Of a DNA stretch of 34,335 bases, positions 4,673-25,163 are shown in pieces. Under the pieces are notes generated by a model, which searched no databases, was not told where the DNA came from, and saw only the letters and a list, made by a program, of their open reading frames with translations. The DNA is from an uncultured Eubacteriales bacterium. GTDB taxonomy: Bacteria; Bacillota; Clostridia; Christensenellales; UBA1242. The DNA lies in the NCBI GenBank assembly GCA_905203455.1, contig CAJKVX010000002.1:1-34335 (forward strand), in the 5' to 3' direction. Numbering within the stretch: the stretch's first letter is position 1; each line of letters opens with the position of its first letter. The translations under genes and the position numbers were made by a program.

Positions 4673-4969
4673 TTACTGGCTTGCCCATTGTGCAAGTGGT
4701 TCACGAATTGCATAAAGCAGAACAACCAACCCCAAAATTACTACAAGCCCAATAACAAAACTGATTATCTTTTTTTGGGCTGCCTTGCGTTCATCAGTGG
4801 TGGCGGCTTTTGAATAGCCAACACCCAAAATTATTGAATAAATTAGCCCGCACACCAAAATGATGCCAATGGCATAAGGCCCCAAAAGGTCAATGGCTTT
4901 ATAAATTGGGCTGGTAACAGCACTGTCGCCAAGTAAAAAAGAATTTGAAATAGATTTTAAAATGCTCAT
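4673..4969 (-). CDS. Small two-helix membrane protein, VirB2/TrbC pilin-like (paralogue P1)
   Basis: 98 aa counted from ATG 4969 (MSILKSISNSF...). AAAGGGA lies 4 nt upstream of that ATG. The 111-aa ORF in the track starts at a TTG (5008) that falls inside the predicted promoter spacer. The protein has two hydrophobic helices (AIGIILVCGLIYSIILGV; IISFVIGLVVILGLVVLLYAI) joined by a short charged loop YSKAATTDERKAAQKK. The core GLIYSIILGV-x-Y-x-KA is shared with P2. The functional call rests on architecture and gene context only. Confidence 0.65.
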   Translation of the reverse strand: MSILKSISNSFLLGDSAVTSPIYKAIDLLGPYAIGIILVCGLIYSIILGVGYSKAATTDERKAAQKKIISFVIGLVVILGLVVLLYAIREPLAQWASQ

Positions 4970-4998
4970 AATTTCCCTTTTTATTATGTTTATTTTTA

Positions 4999-5027
4999 AT
5001 GTTAGCAAATTGCATTCAATTTTGCAA
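4999..5027 (-). promoter_or_regulatory. Sigma-70-type promoter for P1 (TTGCAA-17 nt-TAACAT)
   Basis: Read on the minus strand: ttgcaa (5027-5022), a 17-nt spacer, then taacat (5004-4999). This sits about 30 nt upstream of ATG 4969. Confidence 0.45.
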
Positions 5028-6517: not shown

Positions 6518-9500
6518 GTGAAAAGTTCAGCACTTTATTTGGGAATGAAATTTATGCAGTTTTTTGCAAACGGCACAACTGTTGATGGTGAAATTGCAAA
6601 CACCACCATTCTTGACACTGTTTTTGGTTGGCTAGTAACAGCGGGGTTGTTTTTGTGGAACTGGATAATGACTTTTATTTACACCATTGTTAAATTCGCC
6701 CTTAACATTGTTGATTTTATTCAGTTTTTTGTTCAACGCCTTGTGGGTGTTGATTTTTGGACTAATACTAACTCAACCCTTGCTGACCTTGGCGAGTCTG
6801 ACATAATTTTTAGGTTTATGTTCAGTGAGGAAGTTTTAAGGGTTTTCAGGCTTATTATTATTATTGCCATTGTGCTTTTAATTGTGTTTAGCATTATTGC
6901 CATTGTTAAAAGCGAATATTCAAACGCAACAACTGGCAAAGGGGACAAAAAGGGAATTTTAACATCTTCATTAAAGGCAATTTTTTTGGTTGTTTTAATT
7001 CCTGTTATGTTAGTTTTTGGCTTGCTTGCAAGCAATGCAGTTTTAGCATCAATTTTAAACGCTGTTCAGCCTGAAAACAACAACCTTACCATTGGTGGGC
7101 AAATTTTTGTTGCAAGTGCATATGGGGCTAACCGCTACCGAACTTATGCTGATGATGGCAAAAGATATCCTGCAACCTATTCATACACATTTGGATATAA
7201 CCATTACACAGTTGATGGAATGCATTATTATGTTGTGATAGGCAGTGATATGGTTTACATTGTTCCAAGCGAATATGATGGAACGCCTGATTTTAACAGT
7301 GAAGTTGAAACTGCGTCTTTACAAAATTTAGTGGCAAACCCAGAGTTAAGTTCACTTTCAAACAAATCAAATTCTGGCAGTGTTTATTATCAAACAAGTT
7401 CAATGTTTGAAACAATTATGCCAACGCATTACAAAAGAGATAATCCGCTTTATGCGTTTGTTTATTATTTTCCTGAAAGCGTTAGCGGAAATGACTATAC
7501 CTATTATCTTGCGGCCTTTGATGAGAGCGACGGAATTGATAAACTTGCAAAATACCATTATCTTACAGGTGTTTTAGGGGCAGACATTCAAACAAGCAAC
7601 CTTGCAAGATACCAGCAAAATGGCATTTGGAATATGCTGCCATCAATCAACCATGAAGATAATGTTTGGCATTCAACATCAATTGTTCTTGATGATTGTG
7701 GGCAAAACCATGAAATTGTTCAAATGGCTTACAACACTTGGGGCGTTGCACCCGCTTTTGATGATTATGTTTACTCTTTAGAGCAATCTGTTACTCAAAA
7801 TGTTATTGAGTGGACTTCTGCAAGTGGAATAACCCTTCCAAACGCACTTTATTACACTAACAACATCTCAACCTGGACAAGGTTCGATGGTGGTGAATTT
7901 GGTTTTGTTCCGCTTTCAGTGGAATATGAAATAATGGCTGATTTTATTGACTTTATGGTTAGAATGGGGGTTCAGGCATACATTGTTAATAGCCAAAGTC
8001 CGCTTATTGATTGGAGCGGTGTTAACGAAAACAACTATTTTCAAAACGAAGAAACTGGGCTGGTTGAACTTTGTGTTAATTATGCTGACCTTGGCAGTGT
8101 GGTTTACAAGCCAACCAACACTGACTCTGAAGCAAAGGGCGCAATATATTTGATGTGTTTGTTTGATACGGCAACAGGAAGATATGTGCCTATTGTTCCA
8201 AACAGAGATTATTACAATGAAAATGGAAAATTTACATTTGATAGTGATTTCTATAACAGCAACACCAATGAAGAGGGGCTTGTTATTGCAAGGGGTGTGT
8301 TTGACAGTTCTTACAGCACCAACCCAACCATAATTGAAGAAAGATATGTTGATGATGATGGCAACAGTGTAACAAGCGGAACTGCTGTTTATGTTAACAT
8401 CACAAATGGGTCTGAAAGTGTGAATGAGGCTGAAATGCTTGGTCGAAATTTTGTTAATGTTAGTTTTGCAAGTGGTTCGGCAATTAGCCAATTGTTAACT
8501 GGTGGGCTTGCAAATGACGGCTCAGGCGTTTTGAATTACACAGTTAATTCAGACAACATTTTAGCCCAAAATTTCATTTCAAGTGATGATGGTTTTCCAG
8601 TTTTCAGAGACAGTGTTTTTAAAGAAACATTGCCTGCTGGATATAGTTATAGTAATAATGGAGACAGGGCAATTAGTGTTACTTACAGTTCTGCTTCAAA
8701 TTGCGTTTACGCAAATGTTAATGACACATCAAACAGGACAGTGCAAATTATATTAAGACCTCATCAAATGCCAAACGGCAACATGGTTATGCTTGTGCAA
8801 ACAACGGTTAACGGGCAGTTTGTAAATGCGTTTAGTGTGCTTGGGCAGGTTACAAACTTAAACCAATACAGCACCAGCATTTATGACCAAACTGGAACCA
8901 TAATTGCAACTGGTGATGGCACAAACATTTTAATTGATGATTATTTTAACAATCAAGGGTCATATAACCTTGAAGCAAGCGAAGTTTACGCAGTTTATAA
9001 TTTAAGCAATTCATTTGTTATTAATCCTTCAAGTTTGCTTGGGCTTATTGAAGTTAATGAAACGGTTGTTGGTCAAAATGCTACCATTCTTCAACTTACA
9101 AGCAGTGGTTATAACAGATACAGAGTTTGGACGGGCGCTGACCAAACAGGCAACTGCTTTGATATATATATTAATAATAATAAGTTATCTGTTATTCCTT
9201 ATCATATTTATGGGCTAACAACTCAAGGTTCAAGTGTTGATGTTTCAGGTTTGGCGATTAATAACATTGTTGGTTATGGTGGCGGTAACACCTATGTTAG
9301 ATATAACGGGTCAACATATGTTTTAAATAGTGGAACAAACAATTTTGGAGTTAATTATTTTTATTTACGAAGCGAGGAAGTAACTACATTTACTGAAAGA
9401 TATTATAATGTTAGTTTTTATGACCCTTTTGCTTACAGACTAATTGATGAAAATGGAAATGTTGTTAACGCAGATGAAATTAAAAATCTTAAAGGTGAAA

Positions 9501-12500
9501 TGGGGGCAATTTCAACCACAAGATTTAACTATTCATTAGGTAACAATGGTGCAAACATTTATGACACTGATGGCAACATTTTGTATGGAATTGAATGGCA
9601 AGGGACTGCTGGAACATCTTACAGAACGGCATATGTTTACAGCAATGGTGAAGTTATTTTAAGAATTGTTGTAGATAACCCATCAGAAAACACCATTCAA
9701 ACTCTTGACCAAATTATTGCCTTGCAAACAGTTAACACCGCTGTGGGTGAAGGTGAAAAGTTAGATTTAATTGTAAGTTTAGCGTATAAAAATGTTGATT
9801 ACAGCCCTGTTCCAAGATACACTCAGGCTATTGTTGATTTGGGTGACAAAATTAAGCCAGACAACATTTTGTTTGTTCAAGAAAAAATCAGCAAAGATTT
9901 TGTTGCAGCAGACATTAACTTTAACAATGGGGCAACGGCAATAAGGTTGCATATTGATTGGTTCTTTGGGAAAGGTGATGTTGCCCATGATAATGTTTAC
10001 CACCTTTCAGACAGTTCATTTGTTCTTGATTATAACTTCAACACAAAAACAGGCATTGCACTTAAAAACCTTTATATGCCCGCACAACTTAATGTTATTA
10101 TTCTTCTTTTTGCAACAGTTTTGGTGTTTAAAATCTTAATGCAAAGTGCGTGGGGGCTTATTAAAAGAATTTATGACATAACAATTTTGTTTATGGTTAT
10201 GCCTGGCTTTGCGTCAACAATGCCAATTGATGGTGGCGACAGGTTTGCCAAATGGAAAGACAAGTTGATAAAATCAGTCTTTTCAGCGTATGGCGTTTTG
10301 ATTGGACTTAATGTGTTCTTTGTTTTGGTTCCTGTTATTGATAACGCCGTTGGAAACATCTTTACTTATGCTGATCTTCCAAGCACAATTGTTAACAATT
10401 TCTTGTTCTCAAGACCTGATTATTTAAATGAACTTGTTAAAATTATGTTTATTTTGGTTGCGTTAACATTAATGCAAAGCCTTCCTGAATTGTTCTCTGG
10501 TCTTATTGGCTCTGACGATGTCTTAAAAGGTGGCGGTGAAACAAGAAGGGCTGTTGGCGAAATGACAAAAGATGTTGGCGATGTTGTTAGCGGCAGAAAG
10601 GCAGTTGAAGCAGCAAAGGCTATTGCGCCTGGGGGCAACCCATTTAAAGGGGCTCTTGCACAGTTTATTCCTGGAAGTGCAATAGCATCATCAATTTGGT
10701 CGAATTATGGAAAACCTTTAAAAGATGCACTTAAAGAAAAGGAAGCGTCAAAGAGAGGAAAATCAGCCGCAACCAGTCCATTTGCTGGCGGTGGTGGAAG
10801 TTCAAAACCAAGCGACACCTCAACAAGTTCTGAGCACGCTTCAACATCTGACTTTTCATCAGCAGCAAGAAGAATTTCAAAGGTTGAAGAGAATGACACA
10901 AGAGAGTTTACAGGAACAAATACTAACAAAGCAACAGGCTTTATGGACACTGAAAAGAGTGAAAATGAAATGGCACAATTTGCTAGTAAATATTTCACTG
11001 AAACTCAAAATGGAAAAGATGGCAACGCAATTTATCAGCAATATGAAGATGCATCAAGTGATTGGGTTCGTGCAAGTGTTAACAATGCCATGATGAGTGG
11101 GGCTGGTGACTTTACGGTTAGAGAAAAAGACCTTGATGAAATTAACAAAACACTTGGTGAGGGCTTTATTGCAACGGCTTACAGAACTGATGAAAAGAAT
11201 GAAATTACGGGTGAATCAATGTGGGCTGTTAAAATTGCAAAAGACACAGTTGGTGGAATTAACAGTGCTATTGATGACGCAAATAAGGTTGAGTCAACCT
11301 TAATGAATAATATTTCAGGTTATGATCAACAACTTAGCGCAACAAGTGATTCGCTTAAAGATATTCAAAAACGCTTTAATGATGCAAATACTATTGTTAA
11401 CACAATTGACTCTCAACTTTCTGGCATTACAAGCAATGGTGGGTTTGAGGAATTTAGGAAATTATCTAAAGAAAATGCAGACAATGTTAACACAATAAAT
11501 GCTATTAATAACGACATTAAGGCTAGAAAAGATGAAAACATCAAACTTGGTGAGCAAAAGCAGGATATTGACAATCAAATTAAAGAACTTGAAGCGAAAT
11601 ATAACATACGAGAAAGAATGATTCCAGGACATGACTCTGACAAAGATAATTGGCTTAGGGAAATTAAAGGTCTTAGAGAGAAGCGAACAAACATTGAAAA
11701 CACAATTGCGCTAAACAATGGCAGGATTGATGGAAACACAATTAGAAGAGATAGTTTAAACAAGAAGATTGATGAAAACAAGGCAAGAATAGGCACAATT
11801 CTTGGTGGAAAAACGGCAGATGAAGTTAACAACTTGGTTAAACAGCGTGAAACTGCCGAGGCAAATGCTCAATCATTAAGAAGTGAAATGAACAGTAAAA
11901 ACCTTGAATATGAGCAAATTAGAACTCAAAAAGTTGATGCTGAGAAAAACCTTGCCAAAGTTAGAGAAGGCAGAGATGTTTTAATTGCTGAACGCGATTC
12001 TGCAAGGGCTGCTAATTACCAAACAATGGCTAATGATGCCGCTAAGAAATATGAGGCTGCAATTATAAGGCAAGAAAGATTTGATTCACTTGAAAAGGTT
12101 GTTAACAGTTCAATTCCACAGGCAAATAAAGAGAAGGCGATTAACACATTCGTTAACACTTACTATAAAGGCGCAAGTGATGCAGATAAGAAGAAATTAA
12201 TGAAAGACCTTTCAACTGGTGCTGGAATTGGCAAAGCAAGGGCACAAACTAGAACTGAAATTGTTTCACAGGCTGCTATTGCAACAGGGGCTCAGGCTTC
12301 GCACAATAAAGTAACAAAACAATATAATGACAGCCCAATTAAAGGTATTAATGAAAAATTAGCAGCAAGACAAAGCAGATCTTCAACAAATAGCACAAGC
12401 AGAAGTTCATCAAATTCAGGTGGTTCGCGCGGAACACAAACAGGCACAAGCAGAGGCACGCAAACAGGAACTTCTGGCAATGGTGGAACATCAACTGGCG

Positions 12501-13450
12501 GTTCAAGACCAACTGGTGGTTCGGGCAGAACACAAACAGGCACAAGCAGTAGCACTCAAACAAGAACTTCTGGCAGACCTTCAAGACCAAAGGGGCAAAA
12601 AGGTTCTTCAACGGTAAAAACACAAGGCGATAGGCTTACAAATGTTTATGATAATCTTCTTGATGCACAAGCCGAAGGGAAAACCCGAAAAGTTAAGAGA
12701 CTGGCTAATAAGATGGTTAAAATTGCGGCTAAAAGCAAAACAATGAGGGGAGATGCAGATGCTAAGTATATTCAAACTGTAAGTAACATTACTGGCAAAG
12801 ATTACAAGACGGTTGAAGAAGCAAAGGCTGCTGCACAAAAATATAAAGCCAATAAGAATACATCAAGTGATGATATTGAAAAACTTGATTATGCTGAAAA
12901 AACAAGAGAAAAACAATATGATAAATCTAAACTTGATGTTGGGAAATCTGGCAGAACTGCTGATACACAACATGTTCAAGACGCACTTGATGTAACAAGA
13001 ACTACTGCTAAACAGCAAAACCAAAAAGAATTGCAGAAATATCAAACAAGGGTAAATAGTTCAACTAAAAGTGCGCCAGTAAGGCTCTTCAATGCAGTGA
13101 AAGGAAAAGTTGTTAGAAAACCTCCTACTTCACAAAGCATTAATCAAAGTGGGTGGAAGGCAACTGAAAATGCTAAGCAAAACAAAAAGAATAATTCAAG
13201 GGCTAATTTTGCCGGAGTTACAAACCAAGATTTCAAAAATCTTAGCGACAAAGAGTTAAAAGAGAAAATGATGGCAAGCAAGAATTACGCGTCAGGAAAA
13301 CTTACTGAACAACAAATTGATGACATTATTAAAGACAGAAAAGCAAATAAACGAAGCGAAAAGGCAAAAACAGACTTAAAGAAGAGCAAATCTTCAAGGG
13401 CAATAAATGCACTTAATCTTGATAGCAGCGATATTGATGATAGAAAATAG
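6518..13450 (+). CDS. Giant polytopic membrane protein A (2310 aa). It occupies the VirB6/TrbL-like position and has a roughly 965-aa ectodomain and a roughly 975-aa coiled-coil/low-complexity tail
   Basis: One uninterrupted 6.9-kb ORF. RBS AAAGGGGA precedes GTG 6518. ATG 6545 (MKFMQFF) is an alternative start matching the MKFM start of paralogue B. N-module: 3 TM helices plus the motifs IVKFALNIVDFIQFF, KSEYSNATTGKGD and IFVASAYGANRYRTYADDGKRYP. C-module from about aa 1190: LIKRIYDITILFMVMPGF...WKDKLIKSVFSAYGVLIGLNVFFVLVPVI. The tail holds heptad-rich segments (nt ~11305-12110), RGTQTGTS repeats and a Lys-rich end. The VirB6-like role is inferred from topology and gene position, not from a recognised motif. 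Confidence 0.85.
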   Translation: MKSSALYLGMKFMQFFANGTTVDGEIANTTILDTVFGWLVTAGLFLWNWIMTFIYTIVKFALNIVDFIQFFVQRLVGVDFWTNTNSTLADLGESDIIFRFMFSEEVLRVFRLIIIIAIVLLIVFSIIAIVKSEYSNATTGKGDKKGILTSSLKAIFLVVLIPVMLVFGLLASNAVLASILNAVQPENNNLTIGGQIFVASAYGANRYRTYADDGKRYPATYSYTFGYNHYTVDGMHYYVVIGSDMVYIVPSEYDGTPDFNSEVETASLQNLVANPELSSLSNKSNSGSVYYQTSSMFETIMPTHYKRDNPLYAFVYYFPESVSGNDYTYYLAAFDESDGIDKLAKYHYLTGVLGADIQTSNLARYQQNGIWNMLPSINHEDNVWHSTSIVLDDCGQNHEIVQMAYNTWGVAPAFDDYVYSLEQSVTQNVIEWTSASGITLPNALYYTNNISTWTRFDGGEFGFVPLSVEYEIMADFIDFMVRMGVQAYIVNSQSPLIDWSGVNENNYFQNEETGLVELCVNYADLGSVVYKPTNTDSEAKGAIYLMCLFDTATGRYVPIVPNRDYYNENGKFTFDSDFYNSNTNEEGLVIARGVFDSSYSTNPTIIEERYVDDDGNSVTSGTAVYVNITNGSESVNEAEMLGRNFVNVSFASGSAISQLLTGGLANDGSGVLNYTVNSDNILAQNFISSDDGFPVFRDSVFKETLPAGYSYSNNGDRAISVTYSSASNCVYANVNDTSNRTVQIILRPHQMPNGNMVMLVQTTVNGQFVNAFSVLGQVTNLNQYSTSIYDQTGTIIATGDGTNILIDDYFNNQGSYNLEASEVYAVYNLSNSFVINPSSLLGLIEVNETVVGQNATILQLTSSGYNRYRVWTGADQTGNCFDIYINNNKLSVIPYHIYGLTTQGSSVDVSGLAINNIVGYGGGNTYVRYNGSTYVLNSGTNNFGVNYFYLRSEEVTTFTERYYNVSFYDPFAYRLIDENGNVVNADEIKNLKGEMGAISTTRFNYSLGNNGANIYDTDGNILYGIEWQGTAGTSYRTAYVYSNGEVILRIVVDNPSENTIQTLDQIIALQTVNTAVGEGEKLDLIVSLAYKNVDYSPVPRYTQAIVDLGDKIKPDNILFVQEKISKDFVAADINFNNGATAIRLHIDWFFGKGDVAHDNVYHLSDSSFVLDYNFNTKTGIALKNLYMPAQLNVIILLFATVLVFKILMQSAWGLIKRIYDITILFMVMPGFASTMPIDGGDRFAKWKDKLIKSVFSAYGVLIGLNVFFVLVPVIDNAVGNIFTYADLPSTIVNNFLFSRPDYLNELVKIMFILVALTLMQSLPELFSGLIGSDDVLKGGGETRRAVGEMTKDVGDVVSGRKAVEAAKAIAPGGNPFKGALAQFIPGSAIASSIWSNYGKPLKDALKEKEASKRGKSAATSPFAGGGGSSKPSDTSTSSEHASTSDFSSAARRISKVEENDTREFTGTNTNKATGFMDTEKSENEMAQFASKYFTETQNGKDGNAIYQQYEDASSDWVRASVNNAMMSGAGDFTVREKDLDEINKTLGEGFIATAYRTDEKNEITGESMWAVKIAKDTVGGINSAIDDANKVESTLMNNISGYDQQLSATSDSLKDIQKRFNDANTIVNTIDSQLSGITSNGGFEEFRKLSKENADNVNTINAINNDIKARKDENIKLGEQKQDIDNQIKELEAKYNIRERMIPGHDSDKDNWLREIKGLREKRTNIENTIALNNGRIDGNTIRRDSLNKKIDENKARIGTILGGKTADEVNNLVKQRETAEANAQSLRSEMNSKNLEYEQIRTQKVDAEKNLAKVREGRDVLIAERDSARAANYQTMANDAAKKYEAAIIRQERFDSLEKVVNSSIPQANKEKAINTFVNTYYKGASDADKKKLMKDLSTGAGIGKARAQTRTEIVSQAAIATGAQASHNKVTKQYNDSPIKGINEKLAARQSRSSTNSTSRSSSNSGGSRGTQTGTSRGTQTGTSGNGGTSTGGSRPTGGSGRTQTGTSSSTQTRTSGRPSRPKGQKGSSTVKTQGDRLTNVYDNLLDAQAEGKTRKVKRLANKMVKIAAKSKTMRGDADAKYIQTVSNITGKDYKTVEEAKAAAQKYKANKNTSSDDIEKLDYAEKTREKQYDKSKLDVGKSGRTADTQHVQDALDVTRTTAKQQNQKELQKYQTRVNSSTKSAPVRLFNAVKGKVVRKPPTSQSINQSGWKATENAKQNKKNNSRANFAGVTNQDFKNLSDKELKEKMMASKNYASGKLTEQQIDDIIKDRKANKRSEKAKTDLKKSKSSRAINALNLDSSDIDDRK
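12419..12610 (+). repeat. In-frame 96-nt (32-aa) tandem duplication encoding G/S/T/R/Q low-complexity repeats in the tail of giant A
   Basis: ggtggttcgcgcggaacacaaacaggcacaagcag (12419-12453) vs ggtggttcgggcagaacacaaacaggcacaagcag (12515-12549). caaacaggaacttctggcaa (12461-12480) vs caaacaagaacttctggcag (12557-12576). Peptides: GGSRGTQTGTSRGTQTGTSGNGGTSTGGSRPT / GGSGRTQTGTSSSTQTRTSGRPSRPKGQKG. Confidence 0.85.
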
Positions 13451-13533
13451 TTTGCAAATTTAATTAACAGCGAGCAGGGGGTTGTGAGAGCCTTGCAAAA
13501 TTTATTTAACTTCTAAATTTAAGGAGAAACAAA

Positions 13534-16428: not shown

Positions 16429-16454
16429 ATTAATTAGTTAGGAATTACTGCCAG

Positions 16455-19400
16455 ATGAAGTTTATGTTAGCAAACAAAATAGTAGAGGGGCTGATGTGTC
16501 AAAATAAGTTGGCACAGGCCTTTTCTTTGCTAACATCAACCGAAACTGACAGAGAAGTTATAACAAGCATTGAAAACACCACGGTTGCAAGCGCCCTATT
16601 TCAAGGTATTTTAGATTGGTTGTTATCATTCTTTTCAAATTTTATTTATGCAATTTGTAAGTTTGCAATGAATATTATTGATTTTTTTCAGGCCCTTGCT
16701 TACAAATTGATAGGCGTTGGAACAATTGATGAATATCAAGTTGTTGACCAAAACAACCCGTTAATTAAATTTCTTACAAGCGAAGTAGTTTTAGATGTGT
16801 TTATAAGCATCATGATTGTGGCAATTGTGTTTTTGATTGTTTTCACGATTATTGCAATTGTTAGAAGTGAATATCAAACGGCAACTGGTGGTGATGACAA
16901 TTCAGCCTCAAAAGGCAGAATTTTAAGAAGGGTTTTCAGAGCACTTGGTGCAATGATTTTGTATCCTTGCGTTTTGCTGGCATCAATAATTTTGATAAAC
17001 GCAATTTTAGCAAGCGTTATTTCGGCATTTAATGTTAACCCTAATGCAACGGTTGGAAGCAACATTTTCATTGCGTCAGCTTATAACGCTAATAATTACA
17101 GGAACTATGCAATAAACAATTCAAGAATTCCAATTTTAATTAATTTTGAAGACCCGCAAATGTATACCTTAAACGGAGATAGCGGTTACACAAGCGAAGA
17201 ACTTGATGAAATTTATAAAGCGTGGGAAGAAACAGGCAAAAGCATTTATTCAAGGTTTGCATACAGTTCTTTTAGCACTTTTAGTGACACTGTTTATTAC
17301 AAGAATAATATAATTCATAACAATAATGATTATTCTGGGTTTGAAAAGTTTGTTTGCACGCCAGAGCAATATCAGGTTATGGCTGATTTTATTGATTATG
17401 CCGTTGCAAACAACATGACCTTTTACATTAAGGCTTATGACGACCCTGATGTTGACTGGGGCTATGTTAGCAACAGTGTTTACAACCCAATGACGCAAAC
17501 TTTCACAATCAACTACACAAACTCAACAGGAGGCATGGGAACAGGCGATTATTACACCATGGTTTACCAAGCAGAAGAATTTGAGTTTGACACGCCAATG
17601 CAGGCTATTATTCAAACAATTAACCAAATTCTTTCAATTGGCGAGTTTGAAGATTATCAGTTTAAAATGCTTGAAAGGGTTGATGATGAGCGCAATTTGG
17701 TTGAGTGGAAAACCGAAAAAGTTGTTTTAAAACTTAGTGAGAATTGGCAAACAGCACCAACTGCTCTTGACCAACTTATTTTGTATGAATATTCAAGAAA
17801 ACTTGCAAACAACACCTTTAATGATTATTACATTGAAGATTTTCTTCCTGCTAGTGATGGGGTTGAACTTAAAGTAATGACTCTTCACAACACAAGGTAT
17901 TCACCTTCACTTAAACAATATGTTGAATATGCAACACACTATGTTTGTTATATTAATGGGTCATACTATGCAGTAAGTGAAAATCAAACTTATCTTGATG
18001 GTGAGACACAAACCATATATACAATTGATGAAGACCTTTTAACAGGAACCTATTTTGAAGCAAACTCAACAACAGTAAAACAAGAATATGTTCCAACTGC
18101 AAGTGAAGAATTAGATGTTGTTACCATTGATGCCCTTGGGGGCATTAGGGTGAAACTGCCTACTGATGAAAACGGCAAGGCAAGTCTTTATGCTGATTTA
18201 CGGGTGAATTATAACAGTGGAGACAGCAAGTATGATGAAATTTACAACACCAGTGTTTCAGGGGCAGAACTTGATGACGGCATTAAAGTTTATGTTGACA
18301 CCCTTGAAGATGTTTGCGTAACAGGAACATGGACTGAAAAGATTTATAATGATTTGCAGGTTATTTATAAAGACATTAACATAAACAACCTTATAAACAC
18401 TGACCAATGGCTAAGTGCGTTTAGTGAAATGTATAACTCTCAGTCTTACATTACAACTGAGAATGGTCAAACCGCAACCACAACATTTAACACAACTTTA
18501 ATTCACCCATTGGGGCTTATTCAAGCCGAGTTGTTTTTAGGTAATGTTGAAGAAGGGCAATATTATAACAGTTATGCTGATTTTATTTACAGCAGTTCAT
18601 ATAATGACAGCATTATTAAAGCCTTGTTTATAAGCCTGCTTGGTGAAGAAAATTACAGACAGTCTTACCAGCAATATCAAGTATACATGGACATTTTTAA
18701 TTGCATGATGAGTTCAGTGCTTGATGAAACTGCCTTTTATGAATTTTTTGACATTGTTGATGAAACAAATCAATCTTTGCAACTTTACACTTATAAGGCT
18801 TATCTTTCAAGTGTTTTGCTTTCAACAGACTTTGGCAATTATCTTTATAACATTGCTGACACTATAATGAAAAGCAATAATGTTTTAAACTACATTTTGC
18901 AAAGAGAAATTGATGAAAACGGCAATGTAACAAGTGTTCAATATGTCGAATTTTATGATATGATTCATTCTATTCAAGATATTGAAACAGTCTACGGAAA
19001 ATATTTTAATTTCAGCGAAAACACTAATGCTTATGGAATTTCTGCAATACAAGGTATAAAAGATGGTGCAATTGAAGAGTTTATGGCAGACTATCCAGAT
19101 GCTGCTGCGTCTTTAACCGATGCTGAAAATATTTTAAACAGTATGATAGATAGTTACACCACAACTCTTGAATACATTAACACTTTTGAAACTGTAAACG
19201 ACTATTGGCAGGGGCAAGAATTTGAACATGGTGATGATTATGAGTTTTTAGAGGCCCTTGAAATTTACATGAGCGAAGATGGTTTTGCTAGGTCTTGGGC
19301 AATGGGGCCGAATGGAATGCTTGATAAATCTAGCATTGCAAATGAACTTAGCGAAATTGTTTCATGGTATGATAAAAATGAACTTGTTGCAAATGATATT

Positions 19401-22400
19401 ATCACATTTTTTGGTGGAGCAGTTAGCGTTGAAGAATTAGAAGCGGCATACAGATATCTTTTGCTAGATGAAAATGATGAAGGTTATGACGAAGCCTTGC
19501 AGGCGGGTCTTGAAGCACAAGCAGAAATTGAAGATTATGTAAGCTTTTTAAGAGTTTATCGCTGGCTTAGTGGTGTTGCACCAAATGGGGTTATTTTTCC
19601 AGTTAAAATGTATTATGTGTTTAATGCTTACAGCAAACTTAACGACTTTTTAAGCCTTATTGACACCCTTCAATTCTTAAATGAACAGCAAACTGATGCT
19701 AGTGTTGAAGTGGCAACAATTGATTTTACCTCTGCCTATAACCTTTTGGGGCATGCTGATGAGTTTGAGTTAACCGTTGAAAATTGTGTTGATTTGGCTT
19801 TAAGTGTTAGTGACAATGTTTGGAAAGAAATTTTAGGTGAAAACTTATTTAACCAAATTGATGATGTTTTAAACATCAGCAATGGAAGGCTTGTTGAAGT
19901 TAGTGCATATTGTGAAAATACAAGTGGCGAAAGATACACATCTAGTGAAGAAATTATGGCACTTAAAAAATTGTGGTATCAAATGTTGCTTATTTATAAT
20001 GATGCTGACATTACAATTGATGAACAAAACAATTTAAGCGCTCAGGTTAAAAATGCAAGAGGAATTATTAAAAATTATGTTGGGGCACAATTAAAACTTG
20101 ATACACTTAATCTTTATAATGTTTATTATTCAATAACAGCGTTTAGCAGCCAAGTTTTAAATGAAACGCTGGTGTTAAACATTAATAACAGAAAATATGT
20201 TGCACAGGTTAACATGAGCAGTGCGAAGTTTGTTGAATATATTTTAGGGTATGACAAACTTGTTGAATATGGCTACACTCCTGTTTATATTGATGACACT
20301 TATCAAGGAATTTTAAGTCAAACATCTGTTACAATTAATGGCGAAGAGATTTACACAACTGACACATGGGCTGAACTTAAACAATTTTTAAACAAGTTTG
20401 GTCAGGCTTGTATTGACATTTCAAATAAATCAACATTTGCAAGGCTTGAAAATGATAAGGTTGATACATTCACGCTTGATTTGTATACAATAACTGGGTC
20501 TAACCAAGTAACAGAAACCACACTTTCTCTTTACCTTGCACAGTTTATTGCAGATAATCTGTCAACTGACATTCTTACAAGTTTTGTTAAAATTGATTCA
20601 ACAATAGTAAACACTAACAATGAAAGCGTTATAAGAAATGAAGTTAAAAGGGTTCTTGCAAACACAAGAGCGCAAGACCCACAAGCGTTTAGATCAATTG
20701 TTGTTGATTTGCTTGATTATTTAGGGTTAGATAAAGATTTTGTTGCAAGAATTTGTGGGGTTGACACAACAGATGTTAACTTTAAAGGCTTCACTCTTTC
20801 GCAATATAAAACGGCAGCAATGAGATTGCTTTATGACTATCAAGAGTATGCCGAAGATAGTTCTTACGCAAATCAACAGCGTTATGTTACCCTTGTTTAT
20901 TTGTGTTGTGCTGATTGGCAAGAAAGTGCATCATTTAATGGTGATAAATGGGTTAAGCCAGAAAATAGTCAAGATTTAAACACTTTTTACAATTCAAACA
21001 TAACATCGCTTAAAAAAGATGATTATTCATTGGGGCTTATTATGCGAATGAGCGGGCTTGAAAACAGAAACCCTAATGAACTTGTTGGCTTAGAGTTCAC
21101 TGTTGACCTTACAAGCAGTGTTAAAAGTGAAGAAAACGGAGACGTGTTTATAATTTGCACATATGACGCAAATGAAAGAAAATATTATCCATTCCTTATG
21201 GCTAACAATGAGTTAAATGGAATTGAACAAAATGATGTTACTCAGGAATATATTGATAAATTCATAAGAGGCACTGGCCTTACCATGCCTTACACAAATT
21301 ATTATGGCGGGGTTACAGATGAAAATGGAAATGTAACTGCACAGTGGTATCCTGTTGTTGCGAAGGGTATTGTAACAGAAGACGGAATTCCAACCACAAT
21401 TAAAGAAAGCAATGGAGACATTGTTTTCTATCGAAATGATGTTGTTATTCGTGATGCTTCAGTTTTGCAACTTTCAACATATTTTTCAGACACTTCTGCA
21501 ATAATTTATCGAGGGGGAATTATAAGTGTTACTGCAAATGCAATAACAAAGGCAATTTATGGAAAAACTCTTTCAGAAATTGCAATAAGCAGAATTCCAA
21601 GAATTGCACTTGAAAGTGGTTTGCATTTTGCTTACGGCAATGATTATAATGAAGTTGCAACTGTTGATGATGGAGTTATTTACATTGATTATAACTTCTA
21701 TGAAAACAACGGGCTTGCAATGGAATTTTTGTTTAACAGCACTCAAATTAACATGCTGATTCTTGTTTTAGCAGTTATTGCATTGTTTAAGGCATTGTGG
21801 TCAATGGTTTGGGGGCTTATTTCAAGAATTTTTGATGTTACTGTTCTTTCAATGCTTTCACCAGCAGTGTTTGCAACAATGGCCCTAACCCCCGAAGAAA
21901 AGAAAGATGGGCAATATGCTGACAAGCCGTTTGTTTATGATAACTGGCTTGCAACGGTAAGAGATAAGTTGTTGTCTGTTTTTGGGTTTGCAATTGCAAT
22001 TAACATTTTCTTTATTATGGTGCCAATTATAAGGGAATTCAACTTGTTTAGCAGTGCATCAGCATTTGCTAACATTCCACTTGTAAGAAACATTTCAACA
22101 AATGCACTTAATGCAATTGTTCAAACTATTTTGCTTATTTGTGCAATTTACACAATAAAATCTGCTCCTAAATTATTTGAAGGGTTTATTGGGGTGAAAA
22201 GTAATTTGCAAGACAGTGGTGACAACACTTTGAAAAATGTTAAGGGTATTGAAGCAATGGTCAGAGATTATACCTCTGGCAGAGCAATAGTTCGTGCAAA
22301 AAATAAGGCGATTGGTTTAGCAAAATCAATGCCAGGGGCTGAATTGGGGGCTGAGGCTGCAAGTAAATATAGAATTGCCAAAACTAGCGTTCAGGCAAGA

Positions 22401-22580
22401 CTGTCAGCAGCCCACACAAAAGATGCTCTTATGGCAAATGGAGTTAGCAAGAAAGACGCAAAACGCCTTGCAAAAACCGCAAGACAAACGCTTGTAAATA
22501 GTCAGCAGGCTGATGAAGCCCGCAGAAGACAAAGAAGGGCAGCATACAGAAAGGCTGCATTTGGTGAGTTTGAAAAGTAA
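16455..22580 (+). CDS. Giant polytopic membrane protein B (2041 aa), paralogue of A and C, with a roughly 1535-aa ectodomain
   Basis: Uninterrupted 6.1-kb ORF starting 26 nt after virB4. N-module motifs: ICKFAMNIIDFFQAL, RSEYQTATGGDDN and IFIASAYNANNYRNYAINNSRIP. Shared ectodomain anchors: YQVMADFIDYAV, VVAKGIVTEDGIPTTIKESNGDIVFYRND and IYIDYNFYENNG. C-module from about aa 1765: LISRIFDVTVLSMLSPAV...VRDKLLSVFGFAIAINIFFIMVPII. Short basic tail. Confidence 0.85.
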   Translation: MKFMLANKIVEGLMCQNKLAQAFSLLTSTETDREVITSIENTTVASALFQGILDWLLSFFSNFIYAICKFAMNIIDFFQALAYKLIGVGTIDEYQVVDQNNPLIKFLTSEVVLDVFISIMIVAIVFLIVFTIIAIVRSEYQTATGGDDNSASKGRILRRVFRALGAMILYPCVLLASIILINAILASVISAFNVNPNATVGSNIFIASAYNANNYRNYAINNSRIPILINFEDPQMYTLNGDSGYTSEELDEIYKAWEETGKSIYSRFAYSSFSTFSDTVYYKNNIIHNNNDYSGFEKFVCTPEQYQVMADFIDYAVANNMTFYIKAYDDPDVDWGYVSNSVYNPMTQTFTINYTNSTGGMGTGDYYTMVYQAEEFEFDTPMQAIIQTINQILSIGEFEDYQFKMLERVDDERNLVEWKTEKVVLKLSENWQTAPTALDQLILYEYSRKLANNTFNDYYIEDFLPASDGVELKVMTLHNTRYSPSLKQYVEYATHYVCYINGSYYAVSENQTYLDGETQTIYTIDEDLLTGTYFEANSTTVKQEYVPTASEELDVVTIDALGGIRVKLPTDENGKASLYADLRVNYNSGDSKYDEIYNTSVSGAELDDGIKVYVDTLEDVCVTGTWTEKIYNDLQVIYKDININNLINTDQWLSAFSEMYNSQSYITTENGQTATTTFNTTLIHPLGLIQAELFLGNVEEGQYYNSYADFIYSSSYNDSIIKALFISLLGEENYRQSYQQYQVYMDIFNCMMSSVLDETAFYEFFDIVDETNQSLQLYTYKAYLSSVLLSTDFGNYLYNIADTIMKSNNVLNYILQREIDENGNVTSVQYVEFYDMIHSIQDIETVYGKYFNFSENTNAYGISAIQGIKDGAIEEFMADYPDAAASLTDAENILNSMIDSYTTTLEYINTFETVNDYWQGQEFEHGDDYEFLEALEIYMSEDGFARSWAMGPNGMLDKSSIANELSEIVSWYDKNELVANDIITFFGGAVSVEELEAAYRYLLLDENDEGYDEALQAGLEAQAEIEDYVSFLRVYRWLSGVAPNGVIFPVKMYYVFNAYSKLNDFLSLIDTLQFLNEQQTDASVEVATIDFTSAYNLLGHADEFELTVENCVDLALSVSDNVWKEILGENLFNQIDDVLNISNGRLVEVSAYCENTSGERYTSSEEIMALKKLWYQMLLIYNDADITIDEQNNLSAQVKNARGIIKNYVGAQLKLDTLNLYNVYYSITAFSSQVLNETLVLNINNRKYVAQVNMSSAKFVEYILGYDKLVEYGYTPVYIDDTYQGILSQTSVTINGEEIYTTDTWAELKQFLNKFGQACIDISNKSTFARLENDKVDTFTLDLYTITGSNQVTETTLSLYLAQFIADNLSTDILTSFVKIDSTIVNTNNESVIRNEVKRVLANTRAQDPQAFRSIVVDLLDYLGLDKDFVARICGVDTTDVNFKGFTLSQYKTAAMRLLYDYQEYAEDSSYANQQRYVTLVYLCCADWQESASFNGDKWVKPENSQDLNTFYNSNITSLKKDDYSLGLIMRMSGLENRNPNELVGLEFTVDLTSSVKSEENGDVFIICTYDANERKYYPFLMANNELNGIEQNDVTQEYIDKFIRGTGLTMPYTNYYGGVTDENGNVTAQWYPVVAKGIVTEDGIPTTIKESNGDIVFYRNDVVIRDASVLQLSTYFSDTSAIIYRGGIISVTANAITKAIYGKTLSEIAISRIPRIALESGLHFAYGNDYNEVATVDDGVIYIDYNFYENNGLAMEFLFNSTQINMLILVLAVIALFKALWSMVWGLISRIFDVTVLSMLSPAVFATMALTPEEKKDGQYADKPFVYDNWLATVRDKLLSVFGFAIAINIFFIMVPIIREFNLFSSASAFANIPLVRNISTNALNAIVQTILLICAIYTIKSAPKLFEGFIGVKSNLQDSGDNTLKNVKGIEAMVRDYTSGRAIVRAKNKAIGLAKSMPGAELGAEAASKYRIAKTSVQARLSAAHTKDALMANGVSKKDAKRLAKTARQTLVNSQQADEARRRQRRAAYRKAAFGEFEK

Positions 22581-22610
22581 TAAAAGAAATAACAAAACAA
22601 GGGTGGTAAA

Positions 22611-25163
22611 ATGAGCATTACAACAAAGTTAGGAATGTTTATAAATAACATCACTCACACCATATTAAACGGTGCGGGTGGTGTTGCCACGCTTGAAAAT
22701 AGTGGGGATAGTTCAATTTGGGATACTGCACTTACCTTTGTTATTAACATCATAACAAACAGTTGGAGAATTGTTCTTACAATTATCATGAGGCTGCTTA
22801 CTGTTGTTGGCAGATTTATATTAAACATTATTGATTTCTTTTTCATATTCATAAGGCAATTTTTGGGAATGAGTGCTGATTATTCAACCCTTGAAAGTTT
22901 GGGAGGGGACGCAGTGTTTGACTTTGTGTTTAGTGACACAGTGTTAAACATTATTAAATACATTTTCATTCTAGGCATTGTTCTTATTATTGTTTTTTCA
23001 ATAATTGCCATTATTAAAACTGAATATAGTGATGTTACTGGCGGGGATAACAGCAAAAAACATGTTTTAGTTAATGCTCTTAAAAGTTGTTTTTTGATGA
23101 TAATTGTGCCTGTGTTGTTCGTTTTTTCAATAATTTTCAGTAACGCAATTCTTTCAGCACTTTACATGGCCACAGCAGGTGGGCAAGACATTAGTGTTGG
23201 CACTTACATTTGGCAGGCAAGCACATATCAGGCCAACGCGTATCGGTCTTATGCTGATGATGACCAAAAAATTCCAATAACCTACACCTTTTCAAACACA
23301 AATGATGACGGAAGTGAAATAAATTTTGACACAATTAACACTGACGGCACAATAAGTGACCTTGAAAATGCCTTTTTGGCATTTAGAAATCAGTCAGGCT
23401 TCATGCAGGGGTTTAAAACGGCGGTTATGTTTAATGAAAATGAATTTTTCAGTATTGACCAAATTGAGGCCGCCGAAGAGGCAATAAGAGAAAGTTCAAA
23501 CGGGCAGGAACACTCGGCATACTATGCTGTTTATGATAACAATTTGTATTCAAAAAAAGTTGAATATTATGTTATGGCAGATGCAATTGATTATTGCTTA
23601 GTTAAAAATTATGATGTTCCAAGCGGATTCTTCTTTATGTCAATTAATGATGTTTATGAGAACCATTGTGAAGTTTTTGGAACAGACACTGTAACAGATT
23701 TGCCGATTGAGAAAACTGTTGTTGACGGCGTTGAGGGGTATGTTACCCGTGTTGCTTATGATGGTGAACAAGAAGAAACCGTTTACTTTTCACCAGCAGA
23801 AACCTTTGATGAAGCACAAGGCACAGTTTACACATTGTGTTATTCACAACTTCAAACAATAACAACCCCAGAGGGAGGGCAGGTTGAAGTTGAATTATTT
23901 ATGCCGTTTATTCATGGTGGAGACTTTGGGTTTAAAAGTGATTATGTTACAAGCAATGGGTCACTTGTTATTGCAAAAGGACTTTTTGATGCTGAGGGGC
24001 ACCCAACAGCAATAAGAACGAATGACACAGGAATTATTGAATTTTATAGAGATGATATCTATAGCCCAACACTTCTTGACCTTTTTCCAACCATAACCTA
24101 TGAAAAAATAGATGGTTTAAGTGACATTGCTTGGTTTATAAGGAGTGGTTTTGAAGTTATCACAGGGCTTGATGGCGACCAAATGATTCCTCACATTTAT
24201 GTTAATTTCAGTGCATTTGTTGCATTTACTAAAACTGAAAAGGTTGTGGCAAGGCTTGATAGTGGCAATTTTGCGGTTGATTTTAACATGAGTGACCCAC
24301 ATCTTTCAACAGGTAATTTATATGCTGAAAACAAAATAAATCCGCTAATTTTAATTGCGGGCGGAATTGTTATTCTTGAAGCGCTGTTTGTTGTTGTGTT
24401 TGCCTTAATTGGAAGAATTTTTGATATGGTTGTTCTTGCAATAACTTACCCAGGGGTGGTTTCAGCAATTCCACTTGATGGCGGAAAAATGCTTTCAGGG
24501 TGGACGGAGTCATTTTTAAACAAACTTGTTGTGGTTTATTCTGTTACAGTGGTTTTAAACTTTTCGGTTTTAGTAATGCCAATAATTTGGTCAATGGAAA
24601 TGTTTACACCAAAAATGGTTGCAGATTCAATAGGCATTTCATTAATTGTTGGCGGGTGGACGGCATCGTTTTTGAATTTACTTATTAACACAATGTTTAC
24701 ACTTGTTATTTTCTCAATGATAAGAACATTTTCAAAATATCTTAACTTTATGCTTTCAGGAACAACTCTTAGTGATGTTAAAGCAGCAATTAAAAAGAAA
24801 AAGGCAAAAAGTGTTGATGATTATGTCAACAAAAATAATGATGACGCATTTGCTACTGGTGAAGAAATTTGGGGTGAAGTGAAAACTGCTGCAAAAACAA
24901 CAGCGGTTGTTGCTGGGGCTGTTATTTCGGGTCAGGTTTTATCAACTGCTGCCAAAGCGGTTACTGACAGACTTGCCGATTACATTCCTGGGGCAGCAGC
25001 AGTTACTGTTATGAATGACATTAAAAATGGCAAAGGTTTTAAAAATGGCATGGAAAGAAGGGCTCAAAACAGAACTGGCCTTATGAACGATTTAACAGCC
25101 GGCATTAACACGCCACGAGATTTAAGCAACAGACTTGGCAGTTTTCAAAAAAATGATAAATAA
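22611..25163 (+). CDS. Polytopic membrane protein C (850 aa), the minimal paralogue of A and B, with a roughly 350-aa ectodomain
   Basis: RBS AAGGGTGG. N-module motifs: VGRFILNIIDFFFIF, KTEYSDVTGGDNS and IWQASTYQANAYRSYADDDQKIP. Ectodomain anchors: YYVMADAIDYCL, LVIAKGLFDAEGHPTAIRTNDTGIIEFYRDD and FAVDFNMSD. C-module from about aa 575: LIGRIFDMVVLAITYPGVVSAIPLDGGK...LNKLVVVYSVTVVLNFSVLVMPII. The tail motif YIPGAAA matches FIPGSAI in A. Confidence 0.85.
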   Translation: MSITTKLGMFINNITHTILNGAGGVATLENSGDSSIWDTALTFVINIITNSWRIVLTIIMRLLTVVGRFILNIIDFFFIFIRQFLGMSADYSTLESLGGDAVFDFVFSDTVLNIIKYIFILGIVLIIVFSIIAIIKTEYSDVTGGDNSKKHVLVNALKSCFLMIIVPVLFVFSIIFSNAILSALYMATAGGQDISVGTYIWQASTYQANAYRSYADDDQKIPITYTFSNTNDDGSEINFDTINTDGTISDLENAFLAFRNQSGFMQGFKTAVMFNENEFFSIDQIEAAEEAIRESSNGQEHSAYYAVYDNNLYSKKVEYYVMADAIDYCLVKNYDVPSGFFFMSINDVYENHCEVFGTDTVTDLPIEKTVVDGVEGYVTRVAYDGEQEETVYFSPAETFDEAQGTVYTLCYSQLQTITTPEGGQVEVELFMPFIHGGDFGFKSDYVTSNGSLVIAKGLFDAEGHPTAIRTNDTGIIEFYRDDIYSPTLLDLFPTITYEKIDGLSDIAWFIRSGFEVITGLDGDQMIPHIYVNFSAFVAFTKTEKVVARLDSGNFAVDFNMSDPHLSTGNLYAENKINPLILIAGGIVILEALFVVVFALIGRIFDMVVLAITYPGVVSAIPLDGGKMLSGWTESFLNKLVVVYSVTVVLNFSVLVMPIIWSMEMFTPKMVADSIGISLIVGGWTASFLNLLINTMFTLVIFSMIRTFSKYLNFMLSGTTLSDVKAAIKKKKAKSVDDYVNKNNDDAFATGEEIWGEVKTAAKTTAVVAGAVISGQVLSTAAKAVTDRLADYIPGAAAVTVMNDIKNGKGFKNGMERRAQNRTGLMNDLTAGINTPRDLSNRLGSFQKNDK

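Follow-up and report, generated by a model that had tools for sequence, protein, structure and literature searches.

Background

The closest described relatives of the proteins studied here belong to mobile elements of the Mollicutes. In ICEA, an integrative and conjugative element (ICE) found in Mycoplasma agalactiae, transfer depends on the counterpart gene, CDS16 (PMC6030558), and a recent review regards CDS16 as a likely VirB6-like component (PMC12857230). Among the core subunits of type IV secretion systems (T4SSs), VirB6 itself is the one least understood, and the role of extended VirB6 proteins is an open question (PMC12857230). In the R388 system the stalk has its base in the membrane, made up of a VirB6 pentamer and topped by a VirB5 pentamer; growth of the VirB2 pilus has been proposed to start from VirB6 (PMC9259494). 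Here we describe a compact chromosomal T4SS gene cluster on a stretch of 34,335 nucleotides (nt; G+C content ~35%), below referred to as the window, from an uncultured Eubacteriales bacterium (assembly GCA_905203455.1, contig CAJKVX010000002.1). The cluster encodes the surface protein W704, VirD4, two pilins, VirB3-VirB4 and three large membrane proteins, A, B and C. We consider it probable that A, B and C are VirB6-type subunits of a minimal, monoderm T4SS of the Mollicutes-ICE kind, which by now is a fixed chromosomal locus in a clade of gut and rumen Clostridia.

Neither extended VirB6 proteins nor tandem VirB6 paralogues are without precedent. The Rickettsiales rvh system (RvhB6a-e) and the Anaplasma system with VirB6-4 are chromosomal, vertically inherited T4SSs with tandem VirB6 copies that are enlarged by hydrophilic regions (PMC2653234, PMC7648143, PMC12857230). 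For Rickettsia, a single unit of ~413 amino acids (aa) has been taken as the VirB6/TrbL domain, within proteins of 674-1154 aa (PMC2653234), and in Anaplasma the extra sequence forms a C-terminal extension (PMC7648143). The Patescibacteria (Saccharibacteria) carry a monoderm T4SS that is related to the mating-pair formation class MPF-FATA, is chromosomal, mostly lacks a relaxase and includes VirB2-like pilins of family PF18895 (PMC12102498, PMC12857230); such pilins in a monoderm T4SS have been highlighted as special to this group (PMC12857230, PMC12102498). The unsplit form of the family discussed here is curated in NCBIfam. New are the splitting of a VirB6-like domain by a loop-inserted ectodomain with nested insertions, the conserved A/B/C triplet, the chromosomal locus without nearby relaxase, including VirB2-like pilins, in gut Clostridia, and the mosaic replacement of modules between strains. 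We found no paper that describes this split-VirB6 triplet layout, and literature searches on DUF8208 and on Christensenellales in combination with T4SS returned nothing relevant.

Results and discussion

Three paralogues with a split membrane scaffold

A first-pass annotation, made from the letters of the DNA, had presented A, B and C as paralogues that share a transmembrane (TM) scaffold split by ectodomain inserts, with VirB4 encoded between A and B. The three open reading frames (ORFs) were indeed present as described, and pairwise BLASTP of the N- and C-terminal modules (E-values, E, of 1e-15 to 1e-33) put the relationship far beyond chance. More explicitly, the N module of A (aa 26-218) is 41% identical to that of B (aa 39-226; E 1e-33) and A86-224 is 45% identical to C92-228 (E 5e-27), while B and C match with E 2e-16. 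The C module of A (aa 1157-1417) matches that of B (aa 1731-1991) with E 6e-30, A and C match with E 2e-17, and B and C with E 1e-15. Two anchors in the middle were recovered as well (A439-507 with B275-343, E 4e-6; A468-613 with C317-482, E 7e-7). The global MAFFT alignment of whole A, B and C that had been suggested misplaced the C-terminal module of C; BLASTP, hidden Markov model (HMM) mapping and a scaffold-only alignment were used in its place. The listed motifs were all found, and the scaffolds, with the inserts cut out, aligned end to end. Insert lengths had been put at ~965, 1535 and 350 aa; the module HMMs yielded 935, 1500 and 316 aa for A, B and C, respectively. The [FY]IPG[SA]A motif occurs in A and C, as had been noted, but it is located 55-80 aa past the last TM helix and is not juxtamembrane; B has a degenerate SMPGAE.

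The identity of the scaffold followed from NCBIfam, Pfam yielding nothing for A, B and C at E <= 0.1. The model NF045848 (MMCAP2_0566 family conjugal transfer protein, 322 positions, cutoff 90 bits) scored 123.3 bits for A, 93.9 for C and 67.3 for B, and NF045889 (Mbov_0396 family ICE transmembrane protein, 306 positions, cutoff 70 bits) 90.2, 58.9 and 53.7 bits, respectively. Thus A is above both cutoffs, C above that of NF045848 only, and B, matching the same two blocks, below both. Each protein matches in two stretches, model positions ~5-175 (as given by the NF045848 match of B) and 170-314, that are separated by 316-1500 aa. Therefore, the scaffold is a split form of the ~310-aa channel protein of Mycoplasma ICEs. 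As the contiguous ~310-aa domain of these families is interrupted, A, B and C are to be taken as split variants and not as typical members. The gene context agrees with the assignment: a VirB4 of the Mbov_0397 type and a pilin of the Mbov_0395 type, both above cutoff, adjoin A, and the order pilin, A, VirB4 follows the family numbering Mbov_0395-0396-0397. A Spiroplasma poulsonii plasmid (L087; loci are given by L numbers, proteins by P numbers) shows the same order, with a 347-aa Mbov_0396 protein upstream of an Mbov_0397 VirB4. Relatives of the scaffold family are annotated with the Pfam domain DUF8208.

A likeness to VirB6 had been proposed, and structure comparison leans the same way. A, B and C each have six long hydrophobic helices (3+3), like the ~310-aa CDS16 / Mbov_0396 / MMCAP2_0566 family. 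The AlphaFold2 (AF2) model of C (predicted local distance difference test, pLDDT, 71; predicted template-modelling score, pTM, 0.65) shows this 3+3 arrangement. In a Foldseek search with this model there was no significant match in the PDB, the most probable one being R388 TrwI/VirB6 (8rt9_F, probability 0.87). For an unsplit relative with a short loop (P0005, 460 aa; AF2 model pLDDT 68) the top matches were nearly all TrwI/VirB6: 8rtd_L with probability 0.99 and a template-modelling score of 0.49 over 282 columns (chain of 268 residues), 8rt9_F with probability 0.98, and 7o3v_F and 7o3v_G with a score of 0.5. Taken together, the TrwI/VirB6 matches had probabilities of 0.85-0.99 and TMt of 0.46-0.50 over ~280 columns, but since E was 0.1-1, with models at pLDDT 68-71, they are specific without being statistically strong. 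Pfam TrbL_4 matched 12 of the 33 family members weakly (best E 0.0014, below the gathering score). Furthermore, A, B and C are encoded together with virB4 and virD4 in a T4SS cluster, the minimal T4SS context that the annotation had pointed out. We therefore regard the scaffold as a VirB6-like subunit of the Mollicutes-ICE type; that it belongs to the TrbL/VirB6 superfamily is likely, though unproven.

Ectodomains with nested insertions and their predicted location

The sequences between the anchors had been said not to align. This did not hold throughout: a C-family profile, derived from an alignment of 24 C-type proteins, mapped to A in three blocks (HMM positions 41-237, 314-456 and 529-803) and to B in two (20-356 and 387-801; B15-345 and B1553-2011), which reveals a shared ectodomain core. 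Accordingly, A and B have the C-like ectodomain with further sequence nested in it: two insertions (+238 and +547 aa) in A and one (+1207 aa), at a different site, in B. The ectodomain of C constitutes the ~320-aa core that is common to all three proteins, and C thus is the minimal form of the family, as had been supposed. Protein A is also enlarged by a basic C-terminal tail of ~970 aa, which had gone unrecorded; judged by composition, the last ~870 aa look like coiled coil or low-complexity sequence.

In the AF2 model the ectodomain of C is a folded domain, with pLDDT values mostly of 80-94 between aa 270 and 480 and of 50-78 towards both ends. Foldseek with the full C model gave no significant PDB fold match for this domain; there were only weak matches to oligonucleotide-binding (OB) or single-stranded DNA-binding (SSB) folds, with probability 0.1-0.2, and an OB fold is not proposed. 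Searches of PDB sequences with C and with the family profile returned low-complexity matches only. The insertion of B retrieved B-type orthologues exclusively (18 matches, none stand-alone). Neither the accessory proteins of single-copy loci (569-1093 aa) nor the 1417- and 1604-aa proteins of mobile elements, both considered as a source of the A and B insertions, showed any similarity to them.

The models place three helices before the insert and three after it. The ectodomains are poor in Lys/Arg, rich in aromatic residues and acidic (net charge per 100 aa of -6.5 in A, -9.1 in B and -11.6 in C), and the regions past the last helix are net positive in all three proteins, with 16-22% Lys+Arg. 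Within the 24 C-type proteins the loop between helices 1 and 2 has a net charge of -3.3 (negative in 22 of 24), loop 2-3 contains 12.7% Lys/Arg, the ectodomain has a net charge of -23 (negative in all 24), loop 4-5 is slightly positive, loop 5-6 is negative, and the tail carries +4.4 (positive in 19 of 24). This alternation fits inserts that are outside and basic tails, including the 970-aa tail of A, that are inside. Given the charge bias, the inserts are predicted to face outward and the tails to be cytoplasmic, in line with the earlier idea that the expansion resides in an extracellular loop. Caution is needed here, because several hydrophobic helices of R388 VirB6 are found outside the membrane in the assembled machine (PMC9259494).

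Distribution of the family and inheritance of the locus

The triplet is no isolated case. When 1.84 billion cluster representatives were searched exhaustively by HMMER, the scaffold profile recovered 2232 proteins (clusters at 50% identity) at E <= 1e-3, of which 802 at E <= 1e-30; an earlier word-indexed search for homologues had given 8 matches only, far below the actual family size. Each of the best 150 HMMER matches (676-5259 aa) falls into two or three separate blocks, which is what a split scaffold should give; split members number in the hundreds. Those members that were checked are functionally unannotated (labelled 'hypothetical protein' or not at all). P0141 (L084 506-16285), an A-type member of 5259 aa whose insert measures ~1300 aa and whose C-terminal tail measures ~3470 aa, is encoded upstream of a VirB4 sharing 45% identity with the one in the window, and other members found among the representatives reach 3800-4800 aa.

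In a scan of the GTDB species-representative genomes with VirB4, 77 loci were obtained, all within metagenome-assembled genomes (MAGs) of uncultured Clostridia from gut or rumen, many with the label Christensenella or Christensenellales. Loci with a VirB4 that is at least 54% identical have the same A-VirB4-B-C layout, which occurs in about 20 species-level MAGs. The insert measures 794-1374 aa in A and 293-394 aa in C; in B it spans 1176-1726 aa, with a single locus below 1397. The complete cluster (W704, VirD4, two pilins, A, VirB4, B, C, in this order) is found repeatedly among these loci and, where the downstream flank was captured, is followed by genes for fructose-bisphosphate aldolase (FBA) and/or glyceraldehyde-3-phosphate dehydrogenase (GAPDH).

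Loci with a VirB4 of 42-46% identity mostly contain one member upstream of VirB4, with a loop of 76-163 aa; the exceptions are one locus with two members in tandem and one with the member downstream of VirB4. In L066 (4945-9708), the member upstream of VirB4 has been duplicated in tandem independently, giving proteins of 833 and 742 aa. A subgroup of the single-copy proteins (L046, L048, L051, L062, L078) has an insertion of ~400-420 aa in the loop between helices 3 and 4; these loops were compared with the C-type ectodomain and are not homologous to it. Members with loops of 25-45 aa occur in mobile-element contexts with MobL (L002, L083), and also in L057 and L072. A short-loop member gave no match by tblastn against the PLSDB plasmids. 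The loop between helices 3 and 4 is therefore a repeated site of expansion. A single-copy locus, L035, is chromosomal as well and shares with the window the zinc-ribbon protein and MnmA downstream. The same site, beside FBA/GAPDH or zinc-ribbon/MnmA, is kept among genomes whose VirB4s are 43-65% identical, which points to vertical inheritance; the A/B/C triplet thus appears to be a clade-specific elaboration of an old, apparently vertically inherited chromosomal T4SS. Scaffold similarity does not single out A as the closest to the single-copy proteins, leaving orthology ambiguous.

Sequence variation between orthologues and between strains

When orthologues are compared, VirB4 proves to evolve much more slowly than A, B and C. 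Compared with L006, where VirB4 is 90% identical, the N module, ectodomain, C module and tail of A are 68%, 48%, 82% and 42% identical; the N module, ectodomain and C module are 64%, 60% and 62% identical in B, and 59%, 62% and 66% in C. The proposal that the ectodomains form the variable part on a constant scaffold is not borne out: in B and C the ectodomain shows the same degree of conservation as the TM scaffold, and only that of A is more variable.

A near-identical strain allowed a finer comparison (L086; GCA_964310915.1, a contig of 917 kb), its VirB4 being 100% identical at the protein level and its housekeeping genes having a synonymous divergence (dS) of 0.05-0.10. Nucleotide identity was mostly 94-100% across the shared locus, with three long stretches well below that. 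In A, it drops from 96-98% to 42-84% from around nt 10500 to the end, except for one 300-nt bin at 90%; in B, nt 18900-19800 are at 62-71%; and in C, nt 24600-25500 are at 75-85%. At the protein level A is 20-73% identical from around aa 1350 onward, and its tail (window 10523-13450 against L086 1-6966) is a mosaic in which islands at aa ~1551-1600 and ~1801-1950 have 70-96% identity, with 20-58% and a dS of about 1 between them; dS in the tail is 0.4-1.2 versus 0.12 upstream. The tail in the window also contains a 30-aa repeat rich in serine, threonine and glycine (SRGTQTGTS...) that is absent from L086. In B, a patch of ~260 aa in the nested insertion has a nonsynonymous divergence (dN) of 0.31 and a dS of 0.83, versus 0.007 and 0.044 upstream; the rest of the ectodomain and the TM modules are at least 96% identical, and the last ~90 aa 82-86%. 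In C, identity is 96-100% up to aa 701 and 75-80% from there.

Within the variable patches both dN and dS are ~4- to 35-fold above background (dS 0.4-1.6 versus 0.04-0.12), with dN/dS of 0.25-0.6. Such a joint increase points to recombinational import of divergent alleles and not to positive selection in place. The breaks occur right after the TM module in A, within the last TM helix in C and inside the nested insertion in B. The diversity that was sought in the ectodomains was thus encountered there only in the B patch, the tails of A and C being the most variable. Most TM modules of B and C have dN/dS values of 0.14-0.33, the N module of C has 0.55 and VirB4 0.017.

Gene content of the cluster and its surroundings

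The features of the cluster are listed in Table 1. The window holds the edge of the cluster at W704, for which Pfam yielded a weak Ig_3 match. The last ~230 aa of W704 are homologous to the 1417- and 1604-aa proteins that adjoin VirD4 in the MobL-carrying loci L083 and L002, and W704 is kept at the same cluster position in L003. We consider W704 a candidate adhesin of the system, with a role comparable to that of the Mycoplasma ICE lipoprotein CDS14. The N-terminus of VirB4 contains two TM helices (aa 28-46 and 52-70; window 13534-13750) and the Mollicutes VirB4_plasma model spans aa 8-886; judging from its sequence, the start of the protein looks like a VirB3-like segment fused to VirB4. Homologues of VirB1, VirB5 and VirB8 were not detected in the cluster.

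Table 1. Coordinates of the T4SS genes and protein modules in the window.
Feature	Position	Strand	Evidence and remarks
W704, 704-aa surface protein, cluster edge	98..2212	-	Signal peptide, large extracellular region, C-terminal TM anchor; TM segments 19-37 and 677-695
VirD4-type coupling protein	2365..4359	-	Pfam T4SS-DNA_transf E 3e-42, TraG-D_C, TrwB_AAD_bind; NCBIfam conju_CD1115 255 bits (cutoff 250)
VirB2-like pilin 1	4673..5008	-	Pfam T4SS_pilin E 1e-3; NF045849 E 3e-6, below cutoff; conserved in relatives
VirB2-like pilin 2, two TM helices	5845..6258	+	NF045849 (Mbov_0395 pilin-like family) 47.6 bits (cutoff 40); Pfam T4SS_pilin E 1.6e-5
A, 2310 aa	6518..13450	+	
A, N-terminal TM module, aa 1-228	6518..7201	+	Three long helices; BLASTP/HMM to B and C
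A, ectodomain, aa 229-1186	7202..10075	+	Insertion 1 (229-466), shared core (467-608), insertion 2 (609-1155), pre-TM DYNF block
A, C-terminal TM module, aa 1187-1335	10076..10522	+	NF045848 positions 170-314, E 1e-35 for whole protein; BLASTP to B and C
A, post-TM basic region with FIPGSA, then ~870-aa tail	10523..13450	+	Lys+Arg 16-17%, net positive
VirB4 ATPase, 964 aa, between A and B	13534..16428	+	NF045975 VirB4_plasma (Mbov_0397) 601.5 bits (cutoff 590); Pfam P-loop_TraG, DUF87
B, 2041 aa	16455..22580	+	
B, N-terminal TM module, aa 1-236	16455..17162	+	BLASTP, NCBIfam, HMM
B, ectodomain, aa 237-1760	17163..21734	+	C-like core split by 1207-aa insertion, aa 346-1552 (nt 17490-21110)
B, strain-variable patch in insertion, aa ~835-1095	18957..19739	+	33-88% aa identity to L086
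B, C-terminal TM module (aa 1761-1912) and basic tail (1913-2041)	21735..22580	+	
C, 850 aa	22611..25163	+	
C, N-terminal TM module, aa 1-230	22611..23300	+	Model helices 36-85, 109-142, 149-189
C, minimal alpha/beta ectodomain, aa 231-575	23301..24335	+	AF2 model; motifs conserved across 24 C-type proteins
C, C-terminal TM module (aa 576-716) and basic tail with YIPGAA motif	24336..25163	+	Helices 578-618, 626-661, 685-715

Downstream of C follow housekeeping genes, encoding a class II FBA, GAPDH, a zinc-ribbon/TM2 protein and MnmA, and then a class I aminoacyl-tRNA synthetase of the Trp/Tyr type, a serine hydrolase and prolyl-tRNA synthetase. Housekeeping genes likewise border the loci L003, L006, L035 and L086 on either side. 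Neither the window nor these flanks (~10 kb) contained visible relaxase, integrase or replication genes, so that the linked relaxase with integrase or replication module that marks a conjugative element is missing from the locus at this distance. The mechanical ORFs of MnmA (28892-30022) and of the Trp/Tyr-type synthetase (29922-31025) overlap by 100 nt; the true start of the synthetase is probably located further downstream, because its orthologue in L086 is called as 338 aa versus 367 aa here. The zinc-ribbon/TM2 gene (27736-28902), with a dN/dS of 0.70 over the whole gene, is 99% identical to that of L086 at the nucleotide level, except for nt 27900-28200, which show 85% identity and indels and probably represent a low-complexity linker.

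The intergenic regions that flank pilin 1 (window 4360-4670 and 5010-5740) contain a dense local array of short repeats. Around ten copies are units like GCTCAGAATGACA (10 matches at <=2 mismatches, all within 4462-5715, versus 0.73 expected), and the array further includes four copies of a 39-nt unit, GTCATTTCGAGAGAGCGTCAGCGAACCGAGAAATCT, and a 48-nt unit that is present four times. In part, these units are reverse complements of one another, like repetitive extragenic palindromic (REP) elements or miniature inverted-repeat transposable elements (MITEs). An Rfam scan of the window, including the array, found no family.

A proposed machine and its alternatives

By analogy with R388, the channel would probably have its membrane base built from the three scaffolds, adjoining VirB3-VirB4 and VirD4, and this base might perhaps be a mixed oligomer of A, B and C. 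As VirB1, VirB5 and VirB8 were not detected in the cluster, the ectodomains would probably supply the extracellular stalk, the wall-spanning part or the contact part, while the basic tails might dock the ATPases or substrates on the cytoplasmic side. In the F plasmid, TraG combines a VirB6-like N-terminal domain with a periplasmic C-terminal domain that contains an allele-specific region. The allelic, recombining patches in the insert of B and the tails of A and C are suggestive of partner- or target-specific recognition, comparable to the exclusion-specificity region of TraG. The lack of a relaxase in the cluster and its immediate flanks, together with the conserved synteny, suggests a domesticated, non-conjugative role. 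One could go further and envisage a contact-dependent device for delivery or uptake between cells, and not for conjugation, in which a heteromeric VirB6 ring forms stalk, wall conduit and tip, the ectodomains replace VirB5, VirB8 and VirB1, and the recombining modules set specificity; it would be the third independent case after the Rickettsiales and the Patescibacteria. We put this forward tentatively, since in that complete form it is rather unlikely.

Several observations weigh against the proposed VirB6-type machine. There is no Foldseek match at E <= 1e-3, a template-modelling score of ~0.5 is moderate for all-helical membrane proteins, and no significant sequence or profile link connects the scaffold family to Pfam TrbL/VirB6. 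The topology was derived from charge bias and helix counting, and such simple rules may mislead; moreover, the most strain-variable modules are the predicted cytoplasmic tails, which fits poorly with the idea that what varies is exposed at the surface. A stalk or adhesin role of the ectodomain is pure inference, as it comes without a recognisable fold match. The absence of a relaxase holds for flanks of ~10 kb.

The variability of the A and C tails would find an explanation if the topology were reversed, with the large inserts in the cytoplasm and the tails extracellular or exported. Helix 4 was modelled as one helix of 41 residues, but it could be a hairpin, and this would alter the parity of the membrane crossings. 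The strongly acidic, aromatic-rich inserts, the Lys/Arg-rich tails and the charge alternation of the loops, all described above, nevertheless fit the opposite orientation. Besides, the C-terminus of A. tumefaciens VirB6 is reportedly cytoplasmic, and its large central loop periplasmic. We therefore hold the reversed topology to be highly improbable. A different division of labour, in which A is the only channel subunit and B and C are display, adhesin or exclusion proteins on a reused VirB6-derived anchor, deserves more weight. Their ectodomains would then mediate contact, mating-pair stabilisation or self/non-self exclusion, like the C-terminal domain of TraG, and would not be part of a conduit. 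The single copy of the single-copy and mobile-element relatives is encoded upstream of VirB4, as A is, whereas B and C are located downstream, where single-copy relatives carry unrelated soluble proteins of 811-1093 aa; also, one of the strain-variable patches is in the insert of B, and this insert occurs inside B-type proteins only. However, the entire TM scaffold has been retained in B and C, invariant residues included, and is subject to purifying selection, and both proteins are present in every complete locus of the clade, which argues for more than an anchor, and the ambiguous orthology of A takes away part of the support. We judge a channel made of A alone to be possible, though doubtful.

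The locus might also represent a decayed or unusually stable ICE that still transfers DNA with a relaxase encoded elsewhere, the paralogues being an elaboration of this lineage without a new function. The closest characterised relatives are conjugative indeed (the ICEs and plasmids of the Mollicutes, and the MobL-carrying loci L002 and L083) and VirD4 has been retained. Yet relaxase, integrase and replication genes were not seen in the cluster or the flanks, the insertion site is kept over the range of VirB4 divergence given above, arguing for vertical inheritance, and VirB4 is under strong purifying selection. Such an ICE is improbable, and the VirB6-type machine remains the reading that we prefer.

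The clade provides a natural dissection of a VirB6-like protein: the same scaffold is found with loops of 25-45 and of ~100 aa, with unrelated loops of ~400 aa, with the ~320-aa ectodomain and with nested versions of 950 and 1500 aa, and three of these forms stand side by side in one operon-like cluster. Genes for VirB2-like pilins occur in a relaxase-less chromosomal T4SS of Clostridia, a combination that among monoderms had been stressed for the Patescibacteria, and, going by the family name, such genes are also present in Mollicutes elements. If the ectodomains build an extracellular conduit, this would explain how a Gram-positive wall can be crossed without VirB1, VirB5 and VirB8. The family is large and stems from widespread gut and rumen bacteria.

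Comparison with known systems

Relative to the Patescibacteria, the locus belongs to a different phylum and has two pilin genes instead of arrays of up to 11; a giant split VirB6 triplet has not been reported there. The Rickettsiales resemble it in the tandem, enlarged copies, but the origin is independent, as had been suggested earlier and as is supported by the one-unit domain there versus the split domain here. The T4SS belongs to a different class and to monoderm Clostridia, and the domain is split by an insertion in a loop predicted to face outward, with further insertions nested in a shared ectodomain. The best and practically sole structural matches, at the strength given above, were to TrwI/VirB6 of R388; VirB6 of R388 and A. 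tumefaciens shares with A, B and C the long hydrophobic helices and the virB2-like, virB4 and virD4 partners. They differ in that the sequences do not match significantly, the host here is monoderm, a VirB5 cap is lacking and a large folded ectodomain has been inserted; furthermore, there are three paralogues here versus a homopentamer in R388. With F-plasmid TraG the proteins would share, as a functional analogy, the combination of a VirB6-like membrane domain with a large extracytoplasmic domain that includes an allele-specific region, although in TraG the extra domain is C-terminal and not in a loop, and the host is diderm. The nearest relative is CDS16 of Mycoplasma and Spiroplasma (NF045889, NF045848): homology extends across both TM modules, the gene is located upstream of a VirB4 of the same family with a pilin nearby, and, as in the Mollicutes systems, the cluster includes no VirB1 or VirB8 homologue. 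The CDS16 proteins are ~300-350 aa long, unsplit, single-copy and encoded on mobile elements with their own transfer functions. The window, in contrast, encodes three copies of 850-2310 aa, with a domain of 316-1500 aa in the loop between helices 3 and 4 and a tail of 970 aa on A, in a chromosomal locus without a relaxase nearby.

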